A DNA stretch of 64,000 nucleotides, taken from positions 7,165 to 71,164 of the forward strand of contig ONAY01000002.1 in the NCBI GenBank assembly GCA_900315895.1. The letters run 5' to 3'. This document shows positions 6,805 to 52,404 of this stretch, one piece after another. Every line of letters begins with the position of its first letter. The first letter of the stretch is position 1. Source of the DNA: an uncultured Eubacteriales bacterium (GTDB taxonomy: Bacteria > Bacillota > Clostridia > Peptostreptococcales > Anaerovoracaceae). The notes beneath the pieces were generated by a model. The model searched no databases and was not told where the DNA came from. It saw only the letters and a list, made by a program, of their open reading frames with translations. A program made the translations under genes and the position numbers.

Positions 6805-7404
6805 TTAAAGAACTTCAATAATGGCGTCATACAGTTCGTCGTATGTCTCAAGCGCCTTTAGTTCGGGATGTTCTTTTTTAAGGGTCTCGGTGGTCCTGAA
6901 AAGGAATCCGGCCTTGGAAGCCAGGATCATTCCCATGTCGTTATAGCTGTCTCCCACCGCAATGGTGTCGAAGCCTATGGACTGGAGTCCCTTTACTGTG
7001 CTCAGCTTGGACTGGCTGCACCTCATCTTAAAGCCTGTGACCATGCCGTCCTCCCCTATCACCAGTTCGTTGCAGAAGAGAGTCGGCATGTTGAGTTTTT
7101 TCATCAGGGGATGAGCGAACTGAGTAAATGTATCGCTCAGGATGACCGCCTGGGTCACGTCTCTTAACTTGTTCATGAACTCAAGAGCCCCCGGGAAGGG
7201 ATCGATCTTGGATATGGTCTCCTGGATCTCCTTAAGACCCAGTCCGTGCTCTTTCAGGATAGCTATCCTGTAGTTCATCAGCTTGTCGTAGTCAGGCTCA
7301 TCTCTGGTGGTTCTCCTGAGTTCGGGGATGCCGGTCTCTTCGGCGAATCTGATCCATATTTCCGGAACGAGGACGCCTTCCATGTCAAGGCATACGATAT
7401 TCAT
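6805..7404 (-). CDS. thrH: HAD-family phosphoserine phosphatase/homoserine phosphotransferase (ThrH-like)
   Basis: MNIVCLDMEGVLVPEIWIRFAEETGIPELRRTTRDEPDYDKLM closely parallels Pseudomonas ThrH as I recall it (ACLDLEGVLVPEIWIAFAEKTGI...). GDSYND motif present. Confidence 0.8.
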   Translation of the reverse strand: MNIVCLDMEGVLVPEIWIRFAEETGIPELRRTTRDEPDYDKLMNYRIAILKEHGLGLKEIQETISKIDPFPGALEFMNKLRDVTQAVILSDTFTQFAHPLMKKLNMPTLFCNELVIGEDGMVTGFKMRCSQSKLSTVKGLQSIGFDTIAVGDSYNDMGMILASKAGFLFRTTETLKKEHPELKALETYDELYDAIIEVL

Positions 7405-7408
7405 GTTC

Positions 7409-8272
7409 TTACTTCTCCTTCAGCAACAGATTTCTTATGGCGTAAGCCACTCCTTCGTCGTCGCAGGAGAGCGTGACGAAGTCAGCGGACTGTTTAACTA
7501 TGGGAAGAGCGTTATCCACGGCCACACCGAAGCCGGATTCCTCCAGCATTGCGCAGTCGTTGGGACTGTCTCCGAAGCTCATGGTCTCTTCCAGGGATAC
7601 ACCGGTAAGGTCCGACAGGATCTTAAGTCCCATCGCTTTAGATGTGGAACTGCCCCCGATCTCTATGTTATAGGAGGTCGAAGAAGTGACTGTGCATCTC
7701 TTCTGGAGACGCTCAAGTTCCTCCCAGACATGCTGTTTGACGATAGGGTCTTTGATAATTATATTGATGTTCTCAATGGTGTCAATATGCTGTTCCCAAA
7801 ACTCCCAAATATCGACAACGGGCTTTCTGGTAGTAAGAACATATTCGGATCCCTCGGGAGTATTTGCCTTATCTATGAAGTATTGATACCTCTCTTGGGA
7901 GATATATGCCCCGCCTTCAGAGAATACTTCAATGGGATAACCCAGTTCGAATAGATGATCTCTAAGCCACCGGGAGATCTCAGGATCGATATAATCAGAG
8001 TACAAAAAACTCCTGTCCCTGAGATCGACGATCTGAGCCCCGTTTGAGCAGATGGCATAGCGGAGACCATTTATCGTCCAAATGTCCTTAGGAAGCGCAA
8101 CCAGAGGCCTTCCCGTGGCTATTACCACCTGGATACCCCTTGAGATGGCCTCCTCCAAGGTCTCTTTGGTGTTCGGAGCAAGGCCATGACTGGTTAGAAG
8201 CGTCCTGTCCAGATCAAGGGCAATGAGTTTTATGTTTTTAAGTATTTCAATTTTGTTTTCAGGAATGATCAT
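7409..8272 (-). CDS. Cof-type HAD-IIB sugar-phosphate phosphatase
   Basis: LIALDLDRTLL motif I, ATGRP motif II, FGDSPNDCAML motif III/IV. Confidence 0.85.
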   Translation of the reverse strand: MIIPENKIEILKNIKLIALDLDRTLLTSHGLAPNTKETLEEAISRGIQVVIATGRPLVALPKDIWTINGLRYAICSNGAQIVDLRDRSFLYSDYIDPEISRWLRDHLFELGYPIEVFSEGGAYISQERYQYFIDKANTPEGSEYVLTTRKPVVDIWEFWEQHIDTIENINIIIKDPIVKQHVWEELERLQKRCTVTSSTSYNIEIGGSSTSKAMGLKILSDLTGVSLEETMSFGDSPNDCAMLEESGFGVAVDNALPIVKQSADFVTLSCDDEGVAYAIRNLLLKEK

Positions 8273-9504
8273 TTGATGGCTTGATAGACCTCGTTAAACA
8301 TTCTCAGAATGAAGTATTCTCTGTTCCATTTACGGCCCCTGCTCTTGATGCGGACTTCGGTAACAGAAGTCTTTCCCTTGTATGTAAGTCCGATGTAAGC
8401 AAGGCCTGCCGGCTTATCAGGGCTGAGATCGTCAGGGCCCGCTACACCTGTGATGGCGACGGCAACGTCTGAACCGGAGACCCTGCTGAGCCCTTCAGCC
8501 ATCTCATAGGCGACTTCCTCTGATTCAGCTGTATATTTTGCGAGAGTTTCCTGAGATACGCCCAGCTCATCCTGTTTTGCCTTGTATGAATAGGTCACCA
8601 GGCCTCTGTCGAATACTGCGGATATTCCCGGAATGTCAGTCAGGGCTTTTGCGAAGCCTCCCCCTGTGCAGCTCTCGGCGCAGGAAATGGATATATTGCC
8701 CTGGATCAGCATCCTGCCGACTACGGACTGTAAGTCCTCATCATCGTAACTGTAGATGTATTCTCCGATGAGTTCAGTCACCTTGTCCACCATTTCATTA
8801 CAGGCTTCCTGGGCTTCTTTAAGGCTGTCACGCTCTGAGGTGATCCTTAAGCTGCACTCCCCTTCCTTGGCATAGGTGGCGATGGTGGGATCTGTCTGTC
8901 CGTCGATGAGAGGAAGAAGGACCGTCTCCATTCTGGATTCACCAAGGCCTATGGTCCTAATGATCCTATAGTAAATGAAATGCTCTCTTCTCGCCTCCAG
9001 AATTGGTCTGACCTGAGTTTCAAACATTTCAGTCATCTCTCTGGGAGGACCGGGCATGGAGATTATGATCTTATCATTCTTGTCGATCATGAATCCCGGG
9101 GCCGAACCGTGAAGATTGGGGAGAACTGTACAGTGGTTCTCCGGGAACCATGCCTGCTTCCTGTTATTCTCAGTCCATGAGTATCCGGAAGATCTGAAGT
9201 GCTCTTTAAGGATCTCCAGTTGATCAGGGTATTCCACCACCTTTTCTCCGAAGAACTCAGAAATTACTTCTTTTGTGAGATCATCCTCAGTGGGTCCCAG
9301 ACCTCCTGTGGTAAGTACAAGATCACAGTCCCGGTAGACGATCCCAAGGAGCTCCTTGAGTCTTCCGGGGTTGTCCCCTACCGTGTAATGGTACATCACA
9401 TCGTATCCCAGATCCTGAAGATTCTTGGAAAGATAAGCTGCATTGGTATTCACTACCTGCCCGAACAATATCTCAGTTCCTACTGTAAGAATCGCTGTTT
9501 TCAT
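8269..9504 (-). CDS. cinA: CinA: competence/damage-inducible protein, nicotinamide-nucleotide amidohydrolase
   Basis: MoCF-binding domain TGGLGPTEDDLT and C-terminal PncC domain SCAESCTGG; conserved pgsA-cinA-recA neighbourhood. Confidence 0.93.
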   Translation of the reverse strand: MKTAILTVGTEILFGQVVNTNAAYLSKNLQDLGYDVMYHYTVGDNPGRLKELLGIVYRDCDLVLTTGGLGPTEDDLTKEVISEFFGEKVVEYPDQLEILKEHFRSSGYSWTENNRKQAWFPENHCTVLPNLHGSAPGFMIDKNDKIIISMPGPPREMTEMFETQVRPILEARREHFIYYRIIRTIGLGESRMETVLLPLIDGQTDPTIATYAKEGECSLRITSERDSLKEAQEACNEMVDKVTELIGEYIYSYDDEDLQSVVGRMLIQGNISISCAESCTGGGFAKALTDIPGISAVFDRGLVTYSYKAKQDELGVSQETLAKYTAESEEVAYEMAEGLSRVSGSDVAVAITGVAGPDDLSPDKPAGLAYIGLTYKGKTSVTEVRIKSRGRKWNREYFILRMFNEVYQAIK

Positions 9505-43252: not shown

Positions 43253-44143
43253 TCAGTTATCGTAATCGAATCCGCTGTGAGTTCCCATCTCAAGTTCAAG
43301 GAGCTCAGGGTTTTCGAAGACATGTTTCAAAAGTCTCAGGCTCTTTGCAAAGTAGAAACCGTCACCGATCCTCTCATCAAGAACGGCTCCGAAATCCACC
43401 ACATCCCTTATCTGCTTTGTACCATCCTCCATGAGGATCTCCTCCTTGTGAAGGGTTCCCACGGTGATCATTATGCTGTTGGTCCCGTAATTGTTGAGAT
43501 GGTGATACACATGGGGGCACTTGATGCTTCCCAAATTGCTGAGAAGAACGGTAGTGTAATTGGGATCGCCCTCAGTTAACGCTTTAGGGTTCTTGCCCCA
43601 GAAGTCCAGGATCCTGATTATCCTGATGACTACCATAAGAATCGGTCTTGGAATTGCAGCGAACTTGTCAAGTAGTTCATCTATTCCACCGGTGGCCTTC
43701 TCGCTCTTTCTCATCTCCTTGACGTCCCCTACCACCTTCCGGCTTATGGAGTCAAGATTGTCATCATCCTTTGGTACAAGGACCATCAGCGATTCCTCGG
43801 CTCCGTCCGCGAATCTTCTCTTTGCCACGAAGCTAAGGCTGATCTCATCCCTCTCATAGGTTCGGTAACCCTGGACGAATCTGTTTAGAAGAGGTCTTTC
43901 CTTAATGATTCTGGCTACGCAGGTCAGGACACAGTGAAATATCGTAGTCTTGTATTCGGGATGTTCCGCATTTACTTTTTCTAAATACTTTATGAGTTCG
44001 GTAGCATCCAGCTTGTCGCTGAGATAAACTTCGGAATCCGTTCTCTTGGGATACAAATACCCCATGATAGTCTGCAATCCCGGGACCCTTATGTATCTGC
44101 CGTCCCTTCTGTCTCCCCATTTTCTGGCAACTGTTTCACTCAT
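43253..44143 (-). CDS. Stand-alone CAT/2-oxoacid-dehydrogenase-E2-fold acyltransferase (catalytic domain only)
   Basis: 296 aa with no lipoyl or PSBD domains. LSNLGSIKCPHVYHHLNNYGTNS resembles the CAT HHAVCDG / E2 DHRxxDG active-site segment. 8-nt overlap with the upstream ligase. Confidence 0.62.
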   Translation of the reverse strand: MSETVARKWGDRRDGRYIRVPGLQTIMGYLYPKRTDSEVYLSDKLDATELIKYLEKVNAEHPEYKTTIFHCVLTCVARIIKERPLLNRFVQGYRTYERDEISLSFVAKRRFADGAEESLMVLVPKDDDNLDSISRKVVGDVKEMRKSEKATGGIDELLDKFAAIPRPILMVVIRIIRILDFWGKNPKALTEGDPNYTTVLLSNLGSIKCPHVYHHLNNYGTNSIMITVGTLHKEEILMEDGTKQIRDVVDFGAVLDERIGDGFYFAKSLRLLKHVFENPELLELEMGTHSGFDYDN

Positions 44144-45815
44144 TTGATTCCTCCATTGCTTCTTCTTCCAATAATCTGTATGCCACTTTGCCTACCAATG
44201 TCCTGGGAAGTTCATCCCTGAAGATGATCTCCCTTGGAAGTGCATAGGCAGAGACCTTGAGCTTCAGCTGCTCTATTATGGACGATCTGGTCTTCTCCGT
44301 AGGCTCAAAGCCCTTATTAAGCACCACATAAGCTCTGACTCTTTGGCCTCTTCTCTGATCCTTAACTCCTATGATACAGCTGTAATCCACCTCCGGACAC
44401 TGATCCAGAGCATTCTCCAGGTTTCCGGGATAGACGTTATAGCCATTTGTTATGATCATTCGTTTGATCCTCTGACGGAAATACACATATCCATCCGGAT
44501 CCATCATTCCGAGATCTCCCGTGTAAAGCCAGGTGTTGCCGTCCTTTAATCTTTTAAGAGTATGGGCAGTCTCCTCAGGGTCGTTTAGGTAGCCCTTCAT
44601 TACAGATGGGCCTCTCAAGATGATCTCCCCTTCTTCACCATAGGGCAAAACATCATCTGTCCCCGGCTTAACTATGGCATATGTCATATCCGGGAAAGGA
44701 AGCCCTATGCTTCCCTCTTTATATGTATCCTTCGGCGTCAGGCAGCTGGCGGTGACACACTCCGTGAGGCCATAACCCTCGCGCACCATGATGTGAGCGT
44801 TGTGATCCAGAAGGAATCTGTCGATCTTCTTTTTTTGCTCCACAGTCAGGGAGTCTCCACCGCAAAACATCCCTTCCAGGAAGCTCAGATCCACGTTATC
44901 CATATTGGGGATCTTGAGGAAAGCGTCGAATATAGCCGGAACTCCTACGATAAAGCTGGGATGCTTCTTGAGCACCATATCTGAATACGACTTGATATTA
45001 AAGTTTGGCATCAGAAGGCAGCAGGCGCCGTGGATCAGCACTATGTGGATATTGAGAGCCAGCCCGAATCCATGGAAAATGGGCATGCAGCTAAGCATCT
45101 TAAGGCCTCTTTTGAATTCCACTTCTATGGCCTCCCTGGCTTCCAGTGCACAGGAATTGATATTAAAGTCTGTAAGGCAGATCCCCTTGGGTTTTCCGGT
45201 GGTACCGCCCGAAAAAAGTATTACAGAGGTCCTGTTCTCATCATAGGGCACCACAGGTATGTCATAACCCTCACCTTCAGCCAAAAAACTCCTCCAGGAA
45301 AGTTCATTATTTCCTCTGGGAAACTTTAGATACTTGTGCCCCACCTTCAGAAGATAGAGTACCTTCAGATGAACGGGGAGCACCTCCTGGATCCTGGTTA
45401 CAAGGATCTCACAGCTGTGGTCCACGCTTTCCAGGGCTTTCTCCACCTTCTCGCAAAACATATCAGGCACCAGTATCATTTTGCTCTTAGTCTTGCTCAG
45501 GTAGATGGATATCTCCTCCTGAGATGACTGGGGATGGATCATAGCCGCTGTGACCCCTATATGATCCAGGCCATAGAAGCACTCCAGAGCCTGTGGGCAG
45601 TTGGGCATGCAGATCGTAATGCAATCCCCTTCCCTGATACCATGCCTGGTAAAAGCGCGGGATACTTTTAGGATACGCTCTACGAACTGACTATAGGTGG
45701 TACCGTTTCCAAAAAAATCCAGACATACGTCGTCAGGATATATGCCTGCGATCCTTTCCACCAGGTCAAACATTGTAGCCTGTGGATAATCAATATGTTT
45801 TACTACGTCGGACAT
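44136..45815 (-). CDS. AMP-forming acyl-adenylate/acyl-CoA ligase (ANL superfamily)
   Basis: ILFSGGTTGKPKGICLT, EGYGLTE, YTGDLG, PRTLVGKV. Start set to the ATG at 45815 (GGAG 12 nt upstream); the ATG at 45869 lies inside the terminator/promoter region. Confidence 0.88.
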   Translation of the reverse strand: MSDVVKHIDYPQATMFDLVERIAGIYPDDVCLDFFGNGTTYSQFVERILKVSRAFTRHGIREGDCITICMPNCPQALECFYGLDHIGVTAAMIHPQSSQEEISIYLSKTKSKMILVPDMFCEKVEKALESVDHSCEILVTRIQEVLPVHLKVLYLLKVGHKYLKFPRGNNELSWRSFLAEGEGYDIPVVPYDENRTSVILFSGGTTGKPKGICLTDFNINSCALEAREAIEVEFKRGLKMLSCMPIFHGFGLALNIHIVLIHGACCLLMPNFNIKSYSDMVLKKHPSFIVGVPAIFDAFLKIPNMDNVDLSFLEGMFCGGDSLTVEQKKKIDRFLLDHNAHIMVREGYGLTECVTASCLTPKDTYKEGSIGLPFPDMTYAIVKPGTDDVLPYGEEGEIILRGPSVMKGYLNDPEETAHTLKRLKDGNTWLYTGDLGMMDPDGYVYFRQRIKRMIITNGYNVYPGNLENALDQCPEVDYSCIIGVKDQRRGQRVRAYVVLNKGFEPTEKTRSSIIEQLKLKVSAYALPREIIFRDELPRTLVGKVAYRLLEEEAMEESNE

Positions 45816-45829
45816 TGAACTAAATAACT

Positions 45830-45866
45830 CCAAAAAAATTAAAAGCACCGTATGAATACGATGCTT
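45830..45866 (-). terminator. Intrinsic terminator after gtrA
   Basis: AAGCAUCGUA-UUCA-UACGGUGCUU (10 bp, 4-nt loop) followed by UUAAUUUUUUU. Confidence 0.7.
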
Positions 45867-45867
45867 C

Positions 45868-45896
45868 ATTATAACATCTAAAAGTTATATTTTCAA
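45868..45896 (-). promoter_or_regulatory. Candidate promoter for the ligase-acyltransferase-rbgA-rnhB unit
   Basis: TTGAAA-17 nt-TATAAT on the minus strand. The -35 overlaps the gtrA stop, and the -10 ends 1 nt before the terminator stem. Confidence 0.4.
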
Positions 45897-46327
45897 TTTT
45901 TCTTCTTTTGCGCCCTCTCGTTTGTATCGATGCTGTCTCTGAAGACAAAGAAACGGTCGTAGAGAAACTCCAGGATGAGGTTACAGGCCATGTTCAGACC
46001 TGTGGCCAGAACACCCGGCCAGCCCAGATTCTCTGTCAGGAACTTTACAAAATACGTGGATGTAGGCGTGAACACCGCGTAGAACAGAAGTACCTTCGCC
46101 ATGGCGATCGGAACGTTGTTGGCAGACTGGAATGTGAACTGCCTGTTCAGAGTGAAGTTCCAAATAACGGAGCAGATCAGAGCTATGAGATAGCACGGCC
46201 AGTATTTCCAATCCGTCAGCCAGTCGAGCAAGGAAGCGACTGAAAGTTCAATTATTCCTGCCGATGCTGAAAACAAGGCGAATTTTATTGCCCTTACGGC
46301 TTCTTTTTTCTTGTTTAAATCACTCAT
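45893..46327 (-). CDS. GtrA-family small membrane protein
   Basis: 144 aa, 4 TM, FALFSASAGIIELS...WNFTLNRQFTF typical of GtrA. ATG at 46327 (ATGA overlap with the ADH stop). Confidence 0.75.
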   Translation of the reverse strand: MSDLNKKKEAVRAIKFALFSASAGIIELSVASLLDWLTDWKYWPCYLIALICSVIWNFTLNRQFTFQSANNVPIAMAKVLLFYAVFTPTSTYFVKFLTENLGWPGVLATGLNMACNLILEFLYDRFFVFRDSIDTNERAQKKKN

Positions 46328-46329
46328 GA

Positions 46330-47547
46330 TCAATCTCCCATTGCAAGTGCGAGCACTCTTTTTACGTCTTCTTCAGTGTATGTGACCGGTGTGGGATACA
46401 GCGGGACCGCTTCCTTTACGGCTCTCCTTGCGATCTCATCCATGTCTTCCGGTCTTAGATCTTTAAACTTGGGATCTATTCCAAGGCTTCTGTTCAAAGC
46501 TCTTATTTTATCGATGAACTTAAGGGCGATCTTCCTGTCGTCGGATCCATCATCCTCTACCACTCCTGTACGTGTTGCCAGCTTTGCCAACGGTCTGTAT
46601 GCGGCCTTTCCGTAATCCAGAAGGACCAGAGGAAGAAGCGCAGCCATGCACTGACCGTGGGGCAGATGATAGATGCCTCCGATGCCGTGGCCGATGGCGT
46701 GGACATATCCTACGCAGGCCACCGTAAAGGCCTCTCCTGCCTCAAAAGATGCCTTCAGCATGATTTGCCTCACCGCAATATCCTCCGGCTCCTGACAAGC
46801 TCTCTCAAGATACTTGAATATCTTTGATACCGCAGATTCGCAGAGCTCCTTGGTGTCAGCCTTATGATATGGAGCGTTAAGATAAGCTTCTACCGCGTGA
46901 GTCAAGGCATCCATTCCGGTCATAGCTGTCACGCTCTTTGGAAGGCTGACTGTAAGCTTCCCGTCCAGTATAGCATATTTTGGGCAAAGTGAGAGATCAC
47001 TTACTGTAAACTTATAGTTTTTTGTCTCGTCGGTAATGACTGCCGCAATGGTGCATTCTGATCCCGTGCCGGCAGTGGTGGGCACGGCGATCATGAGAGG
47101 CGTCTTCCTTCCGACCTTCATTAAGCCCTTCAGCTTTCTGAGGTCTGAGCGGGGTCTTGCGATAAGACAGGCCGCGCCCTTCATGGCATCCATGGGAGAG
47201 CCACCTCCTATGGCGATCATTGAGTCACACTCTTCGTCCCTGTACATCCGGGCGATCTCTTTGACATGGGCGATATCAGGATCATTATTTATGATCCCGC
47301 ATACCACCGGTTCAAACTTGTTTTCAAAAAGAGAGTCCATTATCCCTTTAAAATAGTCTCTCTGAACGGTGCCCGGACTCGTGACAATTAGCGGTCTCAC
47401 CTTGCCTTCGGCTTCAAGTATGTCCTTGAGCTTTCCCGATGACCCCGGACCCTCGTACAATACCGGTCTTGGGATGTTAATGGCCTTCATTCCAAGTCCC
47501 ATGCCGGCATGCACTATCTTCATTGTGGTTTTCTTCGCGCTAGTCAT
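46330..47547 (-). CDS. Iron-containing (group III) alcohol dehydrogenase
   Basis: IAIGGGSPMDAMKGAA and the metal His cluster VHAIGHGIGGIYHLPHG. ATG at 47547 follows GAGGTGA. Confidence 0.9.
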   Translation of the reverse strand: MTSAKKTTMKIVHAGMGLGMKAINIPRPVLYEGPGSSGKLKDILEAEGKVRPLIVTSPGTVQRDYFKGIMDSLFENKFEPVVCGIINNDPDIAHVKEIARMYRDEECDSMIAIGGGSPMDAMKGAACLIARPRSDLRKLKGLMKVGRKTPLMIAVPTTAGTGSECTIAAVITDETKNYKFTVSDLSLCPKYAILDGKLTVSLPKSVTAMTGMDALTHAVEAYLNAPYHKADTKELCESAVSKIFKYLERACQEPEDIAVRQIMLKASFEAGEAFTVACVGYVHAIGHGIGGIYHLPHGQCMAALLPLVLLDYGKAAYRPLAKLATRTGVVEDDGSDDRKIALKFIDKIRALNRSLGIDPKFKDLRPEDMDEIARRAVKEAVPLYPTPVTYTEEDVKRVLALAMGD

Positions 47548-47549
47548 GA

Positions 47550-49148
47550 TCACCTCATCATAGCAAAATTCTTTTTGTTGGCCTTGTAAAGGTTCTTAAA
47601 CACTTCAAAGTTTCTGTCATATATCTCCTTTGAAGAGCTATCCGGTTCGAAGGTCTTAACTGCAGGTATCATATCATCCGCATCTTCCACTGAGCCTATA
47701 AGCCCCAGGCCCACCGCACAGAGCACTGCAGCTCCCATGGACCCTACGTTCTGAGGCTCATCGCAGACTTCAACCCTTCTTCCGGTTATATCCGCCAGGA
47801 TCCTGCAGGTGGCATCGGACAGAGCCCCTCCCCCGCAGAACCTTATGACAGGTGATGTCTCGATCTTTTTGTCCTCGCACTCCAGCATCCATCTGAGATG
47901 ATAACATATTCCCTCTGTTACCGCTCTAAGCATTTCAGTCTTACCTGTATCCAGGGTTATGCCGAAGAATATCCCCTTTGAATCAGGATCCTCAAAGGGA
48001 CAGCGATTGCCGTGAAGCCAGGGGGTGAATATGACCCCGCCTGCTCCCGGAGGTGCGCTGAGGATGACTTCAGACATGTAGTCATAGAGGCTGGAATAAA
48101 CTTTCTCACGATTCTCAGGGCCTTCAGAGCAGACGTCCTTCTTATCCAGATAGATACCTATCTCATCCAGAGCCAGATGATCCTTGACCCATTCCAGACA
48201 CTTGCCGGCCGTCTCCATCTCCGCAAAATACAAGTAATTGTGCTTCGATGCTCCAACTATGGCCGCTATCATGGAAGTGGCGTCCACTGTCTGCTTCTCG
48301 CAGACCGTGCCCACCCAGCCGGATGTGCCGGCATACATGTGAGTCTTGCCAAGACCGGCTGCTCCCGTACCTATTCCTATGAGGGAAGCGTCGCCCCCTC
48401 CTCCGAATACAGGAGTACCCGGTTCAAGTCCAAGTTCCAAAGCCTGCTTTTTTCTGAGCGGCCCTACTATATCCGTGCTCTCGATTATTTCAGGAAGGTG
48501 GGCCTCATCGATGCCAAAGGTCTCGCAAAGTTCAGTGCTCCATCCCTCCTTGCCGTCTCTTGTGCAGTAGAGCATAGTTGAAAAGGCGCTGTCGCGAGTC
48601 ATGACAGCTCTTCCTGTCATTCTCATTATAAGGTATTCCTTGACATCAAGCCACTTATATATTTTGCTGTAGACCTCAGGTTCGTTGTCCTTCACCCAGA
48701 GGTATTTCCACTGGGGATCCTTGACGCTTCCTGAGACCGCCCCTGTAAGGGACAGTGACCTGAGAAGCTTAAGAGCATTCATTCCTTCCACCTTAAGGCC
48801 GGTCCTGATCCCCTTGTTTATCTGTTCCGTAGCCCTCTGATCCATGTAGCTCATGGCCGGTCTCAGAGCATTGCCTTCCCTGTCCACAAGGACCAGTCCC
48901 TGCATCTGCGAACAGAAGGATATTCCCGAGATCTCCTTTGTATCTATTCCGGTGTGGGCCAGAAGATCGCCGGTGCTTTTGACCATGGCATCCCACCATT
49001 CATCGGGATCCTGCTCGGCGCCGCCGTTTGGCAATGTGCGAAGCCCGTAACCGTAAGAGCTTCCATATATCATCTTTATACCATCGCGCCACTGATAAAG
49101 GCATGTCTTGATGCCTGTGGTCCCCACGTCATAAGATAAAAAATACAT
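47550..49148 (-). CDS. FGGY-family carbohydrate kinase
   Basis: LSYDVGTTGIKTCLY N-terminal phosphate-1 motif, GGGDASLIGIG, CGGGALSD. Confidence 0.88.
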   Translation of the reverse strand: MYFLSYDVGTTGIKTCLYQWRDGIKMIYGSSYGYGLRTLPNGGAEQDPDEWWDAMVKSTGDLLAHTGIDTKEISGISFCSQMQGLVLVDREGNALRPAMSYMDQRATEQINKGIRTGLKVEGMNALKLLRSLSLTGAVSGSVKDPQWKYLWVKDNEPEVYSKIYKWLDVKEYLIMRMTGRAVMTRDSAFSTMLYCTRDGKEGWSTELCETFGIDEAHLPEIIESTDIVGPLRKKQALELGLEPGTPVFGGGGDASLIGIGTGAAGLGKTHMYAGTSGWVGTVCEKQTVDATSMIAAIVGASKHNYLYFAEMETAGKCLEWVKDHLALDEIGIYLDKKDVCSEGPENREKVYSSLYDYMSEVILSAPPGAGGVIFTPWLHGNRCPFEDPDSKGIFFGITLDTGKTEMLRAVTEGICYHLRWMLECEDKKIETSPVIRFCGGGALSDATCRILADITGRRVEVCDEPQNVGSMGAAVLCAVGLGLIGSVEDADDMIPAVKTFEPDSSSKEIYDRNFEVFKNLYKANKKNFAMMR

Positions 49149-49151
49149 AAA

Positions 49152-49778
49152 TCACTCCCCCATTCCGAAGGCACCCCGGACGAACTTAAGGATCTGTTCC
49201 TTGAGCTCAGCGTCTGACGGATCATGCCCCAGATAAAGTCTCATCCTCTCCTCATAGTATTTCGAGCTGAGGCTGAAATTTATCATCATAAGTATGTCAT
49301 CGAAGAGCAGCGCAAAAAACTTAGGGTCCATATCCTCCCTTACGAGCCCTGCTCTGACCCCATCCTCCAGAAAGCTCACATAAAGCTTCGAAGAGCTGCC
49401 TTCTATCCTGGAAGACAGTTTAACAGCTTCTTCGCTGTTCTGAGTAAGGGTTATCTGATGGTACAGTCTGAAGTATTCGGGATGCTCTCTGGATGCGATC
49501 ACCGCCAGTTCAACCAGCCGTTCAAGACCGTCTTCCAGACCAATTGTGGTGGAACCCAGCCTGGTGTAAACATCCTCAAGATAGTCCATACAGTGCTCCA
49601 GGCAGGCATTGAACAAGGCTTCCTTGTCTTCGTAATACTTGTATATCACTCCCGCTGAAAGCCCTGCAGAACGGGCTATGGAAGTTATCTTAGCCCTTCC
49701 ATAGCCCTGTTCGCCGAATTCCTCTATGGCACAGGTAAGGATCATGTTCCTCTGTTCTTCAGTGAGTTTCTTTAACAT
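49152..49778 (-). CDS. TetR/AcrR-family transcriptional regulator
   Basis: HTH region ILTCAIEEFGEQGYGRAKITSIARSAGLSAGVIYKYYEDKEALF. Overlaps the upstream aldolase gene by 20 nt. Confidence 0.88.
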   Translation of the reverse strand: MLKKLTEEQRNMILTCAIEEFGEQGYGRAKITSIARSAGLSAGVIYKYYEDKEALFNACLEHCMDYLEDVYTRLGSTTIGLEDGLERLVELAVIASREHPEYFRLYHQITLTQNSEEAVKLSSRIEGSSSKLYVSFLEDGVRAGLVREDMDPKFFALLFDDILMMINFSLSSKYYEERMRLYLGHDPSDAELKEQILKFVRGAFGMGE

Positions 49779-50805
49779 TTCCCTTATCCTTCTGCTTGGA
49801 ATACTTATTTACATAGATATAGTGTTCAAGGGAGGCCTGAGCCGGGCTCAGCGCTCTGATACCCTTTTTAAGGCCCAGATCCGCCGCCTGACACTGTTTT
49901 TCCAGAAGTATGGCTATTGCCTCGGCCTCTTCTCTGTCAGGGGCTGTAACGAAGGCTCCTTCGCCCTTCACAAGAGTGGCAGAACGCTTTCCTCTGAAGC
50001 TCCTGGGGATTATGAATTTTTTGCGCCCCATAACATCCTTGCATCTTATGACGGATCCCACCATCTGGGCCATGTCTTCGATGTATATGGGAAGGTCCTT
50101 ACCTCTCAAACTCATTTCCATTACGAAGGGGGTCTTGACCTGGATAACGTGAGTCGCGCTGTCTTTTCCGCCGAAACATCCCTTGTACAGTGTATTGTTT
50201 TTGAGGTTGTAGGGACGGATCTTGTCCCCGGTGCGCCTCTCGAATAACTTTCCTGCAGTCTTTTCCAGTTCCCTTGTGACCGCCATGGCTTCCTCAAAAG
50301 ATCCGCCGAAGCAAAGTGTTCCGTGGTAAGGAAGGAGCATCGCCTTGACCTTGGGATATTTCTTAAGAGAAGCGCTCACATTCTTTACCAGCTTATCTGT
50401 GGAGGTCATGGCGTATCTTGACGTAGGGATCACTCCACCGGGAAGATCGCTTTCAAGACGTGTGATCTTGATGTCCTCCTGAAGGATGCTGATGGAAGAT
50501 GCGTTTACGGAGTGGGCATGGATGACGAATTCAGCCTCCGGCCTAAGACCATATACTGCCGCATGAACGCCCTTCTCGCTGGAAGGTTTTATGTCTCCCT
50601 CGTAGGAACAATCCTTGATCCTGACCTCCACCAGATCTTCCGGTGTCAGGCTGTCGTAGGCTCTTCCCGAGGGTGTGATAAGAAAGCTGTCCTCTGAGAT
50701 CCTGGCGGAGATGTTCCCCCAGGTCCTGGCGATGAGGCCTTCCTCTATAAGCTTAAGTCCTGCATCGATGACCAGTCTCGATGCCTCTTCTTTTGTATAT
50801 GCCAT
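49759..50805 (-). CDS. Class II aldolase/adducin-family protein, two-domain
   Basis: N-terminal domain has GNISARI, SSEKGVHAAVY, HAHS and PYHG (Glu plus 3 His metal set). The C-terminal half (about 150 aa) is aldolase-like but lacks these residues. ATG at 50805 follows AGGAGGA. Confidence 0.8.
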   Translation of the reverse strand: MAYTKEEASRLVIDAGLKLIEEGLIARTWGNISARISEDSFLITPSGRAYDSLTPEDLVEVRIKDCSYEGDIKPSSEKGVHAAVYGLRPEAEFVIHAHSVNASSISILQEDIKITRLESDLPGGVIPTSRYAMTSTDKLVKNVSASLKKYPKVKAMLLPYHGTLCFGGSFEEAMAVTRELEKTAGKLFERRTGDKIRPYNLKNNTLYKGCFGGKDSATHVIQVKTPFVMEMSLRGKDLPIYIEDMAQMVGSVIRCKDVMGRKKFIIPRSFRGKRSATLVKGEGAFVTAPDREEAEAIAILLEKQCQAADLGLKKGIRALSPAQASLEHYIYVNKYSKQKDKGNVKETH

Positions 50806-50822
50806 CTCGTCCTCCTTATGGA

Positions 50823-52304
50823 TCAGTCCAGTCTGCCGCACTTCGAGAATACTCTGTCGAATCTGGCAATGACATCATCGATCATTTCCTCATTGTAGGC
50901 TGCCGATGTATAAAGTCTGGAGCCTGCCAGGGTCACGATACCCTCTGCCATGTATGCGGCTCCGATGTGTTCCATCTCGATCTGACGTCTGCCTGTCTGC
51001 TTCAGAACTTCAGGAAGCTTCCAGGGCTTGGACCAGTCGATGGAATAGTGCATGGTGCCCACCGTATCCACGTGGCAGATGGATCCCTGATTGAATACTA
51101 CGAATGGCAGTTCGTATTTTTCAACGGACTGTTTGATGCCGGCCACCAGTCTGTCTGCCATTCTGCCGGCCTTCTCGCAGGCATTGGTCTTCTCGATCTC
51201 GCAGATGGTGTAGTATCCTGCGCAGCTGGAGATAGGTGTGGCTGCCATGGTGCCTCCGCAGAGAGCTTTTTTGATCTTCTTGCCGGATGAATCAAGGCCG
51301 GCGCCCAGATGCTGCATGCAGTCTCTGTGTCCGCCCAGGCCGCCTGCTCCCGGGTATCCTCCTGCAATGACCTTTCCGAAAACTGTGAGGTCCGGATCCA
51401 CTCCGAAATAACCCTGGGCTCCTGCTGTACCAATACGGAATCCTGTAACCACTTCATCGAAGATGAGAAGTGCCCCGTACTTGTGAGCCAGCTCCTCGCA
51501 GCCTCTTATGAACTCTCTGGAAACCGGCCAGGTGCCGCTCTCAGGTCCCACAGGCTCAACGTAGACTGCAGCTGTGCCGCCTCTTAACTTATTCCTTTTT
51601 AACTTCCTCTCCAGATCATCCAGATCATTGGGGAAGAATTCGTCTGTATGACCGAATACGTAGGACGGTATTCCTCTTGACTGGAGTCCCTTGGTTCCCG
51701 GGATCCTGATGCCGTAGGCCAGCTGATCGGACCAACCGTGATAGGCTCCGCCCATCTTGAGAACATTGAGGTGACCGGTCTTGAGCCTTGCCACCCTCAG
51801 GGCGCACATGCAGGCTTCTGTGCCGGAGCCCAGCATCCTGAACATCTCCACTGAAGGAACCAGTTCGGATATCTTAGCGGCCAACTTGTATTCATACTCA
51901 TGGAAAAGTCCAGTGGATGGTCCGCATGTGTTGAGCAGGTCTATTACCTGTTCCCTTACAACATCCGGATTGCTCCCCAGCACCGTCGGTCCTCCTGCCT
52001 GAAGGAGATCGTAATACTCGTTTCCGTCGATATCGTAAAGCTTGGCATCCTTTGCCTTAGTAATAACTATGGGGAACGGATAATTGAAGGCCAGATTGTG
52101 CTGGACTCCTCCGGGTATTATCTCCCTAGCCTCTGTTATTCTCTCCTTGGAACCTGCGCATTTCTTCTCAAAATACTCAGAAACGTACTCTTCAAGTGCC
52201 TCCGGCTTGATACCGTAGACCGGAAGCTGGATGAGAGCATCCAGTTTTCTGTTTATGATATCTGCATCGGGATACTTATCGATCGCAAATCCGTTATAAG
52301 CCAT
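50823..52304 (-). CDS. Class-III PLP-dependent aminotransferase/aminomutase (GSA-aminomutase-like, long form)
   Basis: GSGTEACMCALRVAR, FDEVVTGFRIG, PLP-Lys in TVFGKVIAGGYP. ATG at 52304 follows GGAGGA. Confidence 0.85.
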   Translation of the reverse strand: MAYNGFAIDKYPDADIINRKLDALIQLPVYGIKPEALEEYVSEYFEKKCAGSKERITEAREIIPGGVQHNLAFNYPFPIVITKAKDAKLYDIDGNEYYDLLQAGGPTVLGSNPDVVREQVIDLLNTCGPSTGLFHEYEYKLAAKISELVPSVEMFRMLGSGTEACMCALRVARLKTGHLNVLKMGGAYHGWSDQLAYGIRIPGTKGLQSRGIPSYVFGHTDEFFPNDLDDLERKLKRNKLRGGTAAVYVEPVGPESGTWPVSREFIRGCEELAHKYGALLIFDEVVTGFRIGTAGAQGYFGVDPDLTVFGKVIAGGYPGAGGLGGHRDCMQHLGAGLDSSGKKIKKALCGGTMAATPISSCAGYYTICEIEKTNACEKAGRMADRLVAGIKQSVEKYELPFVVFNQGSICHVDTVGTMHYSIDWSKPWKLPEVLKQTGRRQIEMEHIGAAYMAEGIVTLAGSRLYTSAAYNEEMIDDVIARFDRVFSKCGRLD

Positions 52305-52348
52305 AAATGTCCTCCTGTAACTTATGGAAAATATTTGATATTCATCTC

Positions 52349-52364
52349 GTGAATTTAGATTCAC
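52349..52364 (-). promoter_or_regulatory. Perfect palindrome GTGAAT-N4-ATTCAC, candidate TetR operator
   Basis: 16-bp inverted repeat about 12-27 nt downstream of the -10 element, that is, over the expected transcription start. Confidence 0.5.
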
Positions 52365-52375
52365 ATCTTGCCTTA

Positions 52376-52404
52376 ATTCTATCGCTTTATCTTAATAAAG
52401 TCAA
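52376..52404 (-). promoter_or_regulatory. Promoter of the aminotransferase-aldolase-tetR-kinase-ADH-gtrA operon
   Basis: Minus strand TTGACT-17 nt-TAGAAT. Confidence 0.6.

Follow-up and report, generated by a model that had tools for sequence, protein, structure and literature searches.

The operon on the minus strand of the DNA stretch analysed here (64,000 nt of contig ONAY01000002.1 from an uncultured Eubacteriales bacterium; in the following, the window) raises the question of what a kinase-aldolase pathway degrades when its first gene encodes a pyridoxal phosphate (PLP) enzyme. The other five genes encode a class II aldolase (ALD), a TetR-family repressor, an FGGY carbohydrate kinase (KIN), an Fe-dependent alcohol dehydrogenase (ADH or Fe-ADH) and a GtrA-family membrane protein, and the PLP enzyme itself is a class III aminotransferase (AT). 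An earlier note on this DNA had remarked on the presence of a PLP enzyme in a kinase-aldolase unit without an isomerase, and this holds: the unit has six genes only, none of which encodes an isomerase. The six genes form one co-directional, translationally coupled operon, as is seen from their spacing, the single promoter and the single terminator (Table 1). Based on comparisons of sequences and gene neighborhoods, we suggest that it is a TetR-repressed catabolic or detoxifying cassette degrading an amine, namely an amino-alcohol handled like a sugar. This reading is tentative, and we put its probability at about 0.4.

The conserved gene set and its repressor

To collect relatives of the cassette, two motifs specific to the AT family were searched as patterns in prokaryotes, each species being represented by one genome; this gave at least 600 stretches, at least 594 of them confirmed. 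Neighbors were then counted in the best 80 of the at least 594 AT relatives, all from other species. ALD lies beside AT in 73 of the 80 loci, KIN in 60 and TetR in 46; because it recurs across so many genomes, the arrangement is far beyond chance. GtrA, with 49-71% identity, is the commonest accessory gene (25/80), and Fe-ADH stands beside the cassette in four loci only. When the 960 flanking open reading frames of the 80 loci were clustered all-against-all, no further recurrent family was found in more than eight loci, and the minor recurrent neighbors (ABC ATPase, MatE and flavodoxin, each in at most eight loci) are unrelated. The 80 loci were also searched for a conserved solute transporter, phosphatase or dehydrogenase from which the substrate could be read, and none was found; GtrA is their only recurrent membrane protein. 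Therefore, the kinase-aldolase-ADH logic proposed in the earlier note stands for the FGGY kinase with the class II aldolase and fails for ADH, and the genome-context search which that note had called for shows AT, ALD and KIN with TetR, not the full six-gene set, as the widely recurring unit.

Two main architectures are found, the order AT-ALD-TetR-KIN-GtrA and a divergent one, in which TetR and KIN are read in one direction and AT and ALD in the other. Where AT and ALD stand without the kinase, a kinase of 57-61% identity is encoded on another contig in all five genomes examined, and this remote kinase adjoins TetR in three of the four loci fetched. In a sample of 400 genomes drawn evenly across the phylum, an AT orthologue occurs in six, belonging to six different families, and all six possess AT, ALD and KIN. 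The window's own genus has the orthologue in seven of nine genomes. Among the best 80 relatives, AT is 69-85% identical to that of the window, and 70-85% identity is seen across at least five bacterial families; according to the labels of the metagenome-assembled genomes (MAGs) and isolates, the carriers include Mogibacterium, Lachnospiraceae, Oscillospiraceae, Acutalibacteraceae and Erysipelotrichaceae/Solobacterium, with Eubacterium coprostanoligenes ATCC 51222 and Lachnoclostridium sp. An131 among the culturable ones. Within the set AT shows the highest conservation, and every variant is built around it. By these comparisons the cassette clearly appears to be a mobile, horizontally spread accessory module with a core of AT, ALD and KIN under TetR, in which GtrA would be a frequent accessory and Fe-ADH a rare, lineage-specific addition. 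Recent transfer might show as an anomaly in composition; none was seen. Both borders of ADH read TGATCATGA (stop, TC, ATG; 47545-47555 and 46325-46335), and in the relatives GtrA comes right after KIN, with no ADH between them. ADH thus looks like an insertion that preserved translational coupling. A full-text literature search found no paper on the AT-ALD-KIN-TetR gene set and no published function, for a cassette that hundreds of species from gut and rumen carry.

Some deviating loci were observed besides. In a distant clade (L012, L013, L014 and L103; AT 54-59% identical) the order is GtrA-(TetR)-AT-KIN-ALD, and the halves of ALD are reversed, with the degenerate half N-terminal and the catalytic domain C-terminal. 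In a genome of the window's genus (G006, L011:11766-12580), the genes of AT, ALD and TetR are intact, but of the kinase no more than residues 1-56 and 403-529 can be detected beside them, and of GtrA no more than the final 70 residues, apparently a decayed copy of the cassette. Two Mogibacterium MAGs (L023 and L026, about 7016-8360) carry a second AT paralogue, 41% identical, directly upstream of AT-KIN; MatE and MFS genes are nearby, and aldolase and TetR are absent from the locus.

The comparison also bears on the note's suggestion of an autoregulated switch made of TetR and a palindrome. The pattern GTGAA-N6-TTCAC has a single match in the window, even when one mismatch is allowed, and this match lies at the operon promoter. 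The palindrome was said to cover the transcription start. It is indeed a perfect palindrome of 16 bp, but it begins 12 nt past the -10 element and spans about +6 to +21, leaving the start point uncovered. We searched up to 200 nt 5' of AT in 78 loci, with the remaining 1.1 Mb of the same loci as background, and a perfect GTGA(A/G)-N6-(T/C)TCAC was found in 49 of the 78 loci versus three times in the background. Across loci the arms are fixed and the spacer is free to vary. The arm type follows the repressor: GTGAA goes with the co-directional TetR clade in 18 of 26 cases and GTGAG with the divergent clade in 17 of 18, and the recognition helix reads SVGV.YKYY versus SIGLMYKYF between the two clades. 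In the genomes with a split cassette, the AT-ALD promoter keeps the palindrome 10-16 nt past the -10 element though TetR is encoded elsewhere. The palindrome is therefore the probable operator of TetR, with strong comparative support, and the same recurrence and co-variation lend strong comparative support to the predicted autoregulation.

Conserved acidic (Glu/Asp) and aromatic residues are found in the ligand domain of TetR, which is what a cationic ligand would lead one to expect. The best profile match of TetR among solved relatives is Thermotoga TM1030, and FadR, KstR2 and Mce3R are matched only at E-values typical of any TetR. In loci L073-L097 a second conserved palindrome, TTTTGTA-N6-TGCACAAAA, was noticed about 250 nt upstream of AT, on the TetR/kinase side of the divergent intergenic region; it is distinct from the GTGAG-type operator.

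Assignment of the enzymes

The resemblance of AT to glutamate-1-semialdehyde aminomutase (GSAM, HemL) had left room for the possibility, named in the earlier note as one that would undo its proposal, that the PLP enzyme is a bona fide HemL. We rejected this identity on score, on motif and on the missing HemB match. AT reaches 253-254 bits with the HemL model TIGR00713, half the cut-off of 527.3, and is the genome's only match to that model. The GSAM motif PGGVNSPVRAF reads PGGVQHNL-AF in AT, where the Arg that binds the carboxylate of the semialdehyde aligns with a gap, and the replacement QHNLA[FN]N is family-wide. No match to HemB (PF00490) was found in the genome, an absence limited by the genome's completeness of 87%. 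The best NCBIfam neighbors of AT are GSAM and GntE. The PLP-binding Lys noted in FGKVIAGG is present and is invariant among eight orthologues.

ALD aligns with E. coli FucA across the whole catalytic domain (31% identity), and Glu, HxH and His are kept. The Glu of PSSE, the three His and the phosphate pocket (TWGN.SAR and ITPSG) are invariant or nearly so in 58 ALD orthologues, and the catalytic and metal set is confined to the N-terminal domain. The alignment and the orthologues thus bear out the two-domain aldolase described before, with a complete Glu/HxH/His set in its N-terminal domain only. Tested for membership of the class II (FucA-type) superfamily, ALD has the metal His residues, the catalytic Glu and the phosphate pocket. 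The C-terminal part is homologous to residues ~80-190 of the N-terminal domain (hhalign probability 98.5%, E 3e-15), so that in its last 150 residues ALD repeats, in degenerate form, the final two-thirds of the fold; this repeat has lost the metal ligands and retains a LDD.AQI.G motif and a Tyr-rich C-terminal tail. FucA uses Tyr113' and Tyr209' from the neighboring subunit, and by analogy the motif and the tail of ALD may be placed where these tyrosines act. The AF2 model of ALD (pLDDT 89.7) has its best fold matches with FucA (TM 0.85), AraD, DrdA, YgbL and MtnB/APIP. The PSSE motif favors C-C cleavage of the FucA type over epimerase, dehydratase or decarboxylase chemistry.

The best FGGY model for KIN is XylB (TIGR01312), with 296 bits against a cut-off of 380, and KIN stays below every equivalog. 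ADH is closest to FucO and the 1,3-propanediol dehydrogenases, which act on short polar aldehydes. The operon had been called Fuc/Rha-like, a membership that the HMM check does not support because no enzyme meets the equivalog cut-offs of FucK, FucA or FucO: the scores and cut-offs are 85 versus 471 bits for fuculokinase, 26 versus 528 for RhaB, 94 versus 400 for fucA and 233 versus 523 for lactaldehyde reductase.

Further information comes from G019, which belongs to the same family but to another genus. Its sister cassette (L015:7617-13000 and L105:913-3256) has the arrangement TetR | KIN-MFS-AT, with an AT of 51% identity. The cassette continues with a MtnW-like RuBisCO-like protein and a MtnX-like HAD phosphatase, followed by a methionine gamma-lyase gene, and no class II aldolase was found in it. 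AT and KIN are thus the constant pair, and the third activity would in each case be a metal enzyme acting on the enediolate of a phospho-ketone. Such a pattern argues that AT makes a keto group and KIN phosphorylates the neighboring hydroxyl; it speaks against an aldehyde set free by the aldolase as the substrate of AT, since a cassette without aldolase offers no aldehyde product for AT to act on.

Proposed route and alternatives

In the route that we propose, the free amine substrate would bind TetR and lift repression. AT would turn a secondary amine at C2, flanked by hydroxyls as in a 2-amino-1,3,4-triol head group, into a 2-ketone, and because the 2-ketone is an analogue of a ketose, an isomerase would not be needed. 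Such a conversion of an amino-polyol to a ketose, one of the possibilities raised in the earlier note, would still be the most plausible reading. The XylB-like KIN would phosphorylate the adjacent primary hydroxyl to give the 1-phosphate, and ALD, with the degenerate half-domain substituting for the partner subunit, would split this ketose-1-phosphate analogue into dihydroxyacetone phosphate (DHAP) and an aldehyde, which in this genome the recruited Fe-ADH might reduce. GtrA, or the MFS protein in the sister cassette, may carry an amphiphilic or cationic substrate across the membrane. Such a route would point to an unrecognised entry of amines into glycolysis, with a transaminase in place of the usual sugar isomerase, and a repressor/operator pair comes ready-made with it, the ligand of which would reveal what the substrate is.

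Among natural compounds with a 2-amino-1,3,4-triol head, the most abundant is phytosphingosine, which comes from plant, yeast and gut-epithelial sphingolipids, and its D-ribo configuration would lead to a D-erythro ketose-1-phosphate, the stereochemistry of FucA and DrdA. A base of the phytosphingosine type is hence the most attractive candidate for the substrate. GtrA belongs to a family of lipid-linked-sugar flippases (translocases). A class III aminotransferase that converts the C2 amine of a sphingoid-like aminopentol to the 2-ketone, with pyruvate as the acceptor, is already known in FumI of Sphingopyxis (PDB 6HBS; PMC3136697, PMC9858248). The lack of a conserved solute transporter, the presence of a protein of the lipid-flippase family and the precedent of FumI all fit a specific version of the route, in which gut Firmicutes degrade long-chain sphingoid bases of the phytosphingosine type as sugars (C2 transamination, C1 phosphorylation and retro-aldol cleavage to DHAP and a fatty aldehyde), with GtrA as flippase and TetR as sensor of the base. 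As both the fitting and the non-fitting points were weighed, we regard this specific version as improbable and rate it well below the general route. If true, sphingolipids would be broken down by a route that has no relation to the kinase/S1P-lyase pathway and that would also confer resistance against antimicrobial sphingoid bases. Were the substrate a dietary or host sphingoid base, the cassette would matter for lipid signalling between host and microbes and for how well bacteria tolerate antimicrobial lipids. The papers found that link E. coprostanoligenes with sphingosine are correlational omics only and were not used.

Several points weigh against the proposed route, in its general or its lipid form. 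The order of the three enzymatic steps rests on inference. A terminal amine is equally possible as the substrate of AT, because the GSAM-like enzymes (GSAM, GntE) handle pairs of aldehydes and primary amines. The fold of ALD also houses epimerases, dehydratases and decarboxylases, with AraD, MtnB and OtnC among the matches. The resemblance of Fe-ADH to enzymes for short polar aldehydes disfavors a long-chain aldehyde, and lipid substrates are not known for FGGY kinases. A hydrophobic or membrane-binding feature was looked for in AT and KIN and none was found. FumI is only distantly related to AT (E 6e-7 over 54 residues), and a relative of the window's downstream acyl-CoA ligase is present in only one of the 80 loci.

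These reservations lead to other readings of the same genes. AT may act at the opposite end of the pathway, on a pair of a primary amine and an aldehyde, with either ALD condensing or AT aminating: for example, ethanolamine or another small amino-alcohol would give a glycolaldehyde-like product that ALD condenses with DHAP to a pentulose-1-phosphate, while KIN adds a second phosphate or supplies DHAP; in a variant, the aldehyde set free by ALD is aminated. The nearest named relatives of AT do use aldehydes and primary amines, KIN resembles XylB, which phosphorylates the distal C5 hydroxyl, and Fe-ADH resembles glycolaldehyde/lactaldehyde reductases. However, the sister cassette keeps AT and KIN without an aldolase and hence without an aldehyde partner, these small genomes offer no evident outlet for a pentulose-1-phosphate or a bisphosphate, and neither an ethanolamine transporter nor eut genes are linked in the 80 loci, which makes this reading unlikely, if still one to reckon with. 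Doubt may also be directed at ALD itself, which might not be an aldolase and might instead dehydrate, epimerise or decarboxylate the phospho-ketose made by AT and KIN in a salvage route related to methionine or deoxy-sugars. MtnB, AraD, OtnC/YgbL and DrdA are indeed among the sequence and fold neighbors of ALD, and in the sister cassette, which a methionine gamma-lyase gene adjoins, the place of ALD is taken by MtnW-like and MtnX-like enzymes, the counterparts of those that follow MtnB in Bacillus methionine salvage. Yet the catalytic acid is the Glu of PSSE as in FucA, where AraD has Asp; FucA is the best match of ALD by both sequence and fold, and the MtnB models cover the first 110 residues of ALD only. 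We thus consider a non-aldolase role improbable.

A biosynthetic direction, as the earlier note had suggested, would have DHAP and an aldehyde condensed and aminated to an amino-polyol phosphate, which GtrA exports for the envelope or for the head group of an unusual lipid. GtrA is found in 25 of the 80 loci and is the only one found in the genome (PF04138), and genes for an acyl-CoA ligase and an acyltransferase of the CAT/E2 fold come next in the window. Nevertheless, most loci lack GtrA, the ligase/acyltransferase pair is linked in one of the 80, and in the window a terminator and a separate promoter divide it from the operon. No glycosyl- or phospho-transferase to a lipid carrier or polymer was found in any of the 80 loci, and no GtrB-type polyprenyl-phosphate glycosyltransferase in the operon or among the recurrent neighbors. 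Biosynthesis would also leave the kinase without a role, and the operator-controlled repressor together with the patchy distribution (6/400 genomes) suits an inducible accessory pathway, so this direction is very doubtful. Hardly worth entertaining is the idea of a normal deoxy-sugar operon of the fucose/rhamnose type in which a HemL gene, unrelated to the rest, came first by chance. FGGY kinase, class II aldolase and Fe-ADH recall FucK/FucA/FucO, but all three lie far under their equivalog cut-offs, the isomerase (FucI/RhaA) and the permease are both missing among the six genes, and AT is no HemL and is the best conserved of the set. A phospho-lyase reading, in which the kinase acts first and the PLP enzyme then eliminates the phosphate, was set aside because ALD retains a complete phosphate pocket. 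The amine-degrading route with transamination ahead of phosphorylation and cleavage is accordingly the one that we prefer.

Operon features and relation to known systems

The minus strand from 52404 to 45842 consists of one promoter, the palindrome, six coupled genes and a terminator (Table 1). The tight spacing of the genes, the promoter and the terminator after gtrA that the earlier note had described are all in the sequence, the terminator stem having 11 bp, and its view of one co-directional, coupled unit is borne out by the gene starts and spacings. The promoter begins right behind the terminator (52456-52431) of the upstream gene of the prolyl-oligopeptidase family, and an AGGAGG ribosome site lies between the palindrome and the six genes. 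The start codon of ALD is 17 nt past the AT stop and is preceded by AAGGAGG, that of TetR lies within the final 20 nt of ALD (a 20-nt overlap), and the start codons of KIN, ADH and GtrA follow the preceding stops at +3, +2 and +2 nt, respectively.

Table 1. Positions of the operon features in the window
Feature	Position	Strand	Details
Sigma-70-type promoter, TTGACT-17-TAGAAT	52376..52404	-	10/12 consensus matches
Perfect palindrome, GTGAAT-CTAA-ATTCAC	52349..52364		16 bp; as read on the minus strand; probable TetR operator
AT, class III PLP aminotransferase, 493 aa	50823..52304	-	Pfam PF00202 (Aminotran_3); ATG 52304
ALD, class II aldolase, 348 aa	49759..50805	-	Pfam PF00596 (Aldolase_II); ATG 50805
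TetR-family repressor	49152..49778	-	Pfam TetR_N PF00440, E 1.9e-12; ATG 49778
KIN, FGGY carbohydrate kinase, 532 aa	47550..49148	-	Pfam FGGY_N and FGGY_C; ATG 49148
ADH, Fe-dependent (group III) alcohol dehydrogenase	46330..47547	-	Pfam Fe-ADH; ATG 47547
GtrA-family four-helix membrane protein	45893..46327	-	Pfam PF04138, 53 bits versus 26.1; ATG 46327
Intrinsic terminator, 11-bp stem and U-tract	45832..45867	-	Closes the operon; hairpin 45867-45842, -13.1 kcal/mol

Downstream, a near-consensus promoter with TG (TTGAAA-17-TATAAT, 45830-45896) overlaps the gtrA stop directly before the operon terminator; its transcripts would start within the hairpin's 5' arm and run into the gene of the acyl-CoA ligase, the correct start codon of which is the ATG at about 45815. 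This acyl-adenylate ligase and a stand-alone acyltransferase of the CAT/E2 fold (43253-45815) apparently belong, together with rbgA and rnhB, to a unit of their own.

Compared with known systems, AT is close to HemL: both have the class III fold and belong to one subgroup (AT is about 38-40% identical to solved GSAMs), the context of the PLP lysine is the same, and the active-site loop is similar. AT differs by about 45 extra N-terminal residues, which carry an invariant Cys-x2-Ser-Lys, by a longer C-terminus and by always adjoining an aldolase or a kinase. The pairs of an amino-alcohol kinase and a class III phospho-lyase (ethanolamine-phosphate and 1-amino-2-propanol-phosphate phospho-lyase) likewise dispose of an amino-alcohol by means of a kinase and a class III PLP enzyme. 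However, their kinases are of the APH type and not FGGY enzymes like KIN, and once the lyase had eliminated the phosphate, ALD would lack the group that its fully conserved pocket requires. FumI gives a precedent for the proposed transamination by AT, but its substrate has no C1 hydroxyl, and therefore the kinase and aldolase steps cannot follow.

The catabolism of L-fucose, D-arabinose and L-rhamnose shares with the cassette an FGGY kinase (FucK/RhaB) and a metal-dependent class II aldolase (FucA/RhaD). ALD has the phosphate pocket, Glu and three His of the FucA type, and the Fe-ADH of the window could reduce the aldehyde as FucO does. The cassette differs in being led by a PLP transaminase without isomerase or permease, in the degenerate half-subunit built into ALD, and in a regulator of the TetR and not of the DeoR/AraC type. 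Closer in the proposed chemistry is the DHAP shunt of 5-deoxyribose salvage (DrdK-DrdI-DrdA; MtnK-MtnA-Ald2), in which an enzyme of the class II aldolase fold cleaves a D-erythro ketose-1-phosphate with a non-polar tail to DHAP and an aldehyde, the latter reduced by an ADH. Moreover, DrdA and MtnB (APIP) are fold neighbors of ALD, and MtnW and MtnX of Bacillus methionine salvage are resembled in the sister cassette. Here again the kinase of the cassette is different, FGGY and not MtnK, no isomerase is present and a transaminase makes the entry step. In its logic the cassette resembles FucK/FucA(/FucO) and DrdK/DrdA, and it failed every test for membership of these operons and for identity with HemL. 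We would class it with the kinase-aldolase pathways of catabolism, as a variant that is entered through a PLP enzyme, is switched by TetR and has an aldolase that complements itself.

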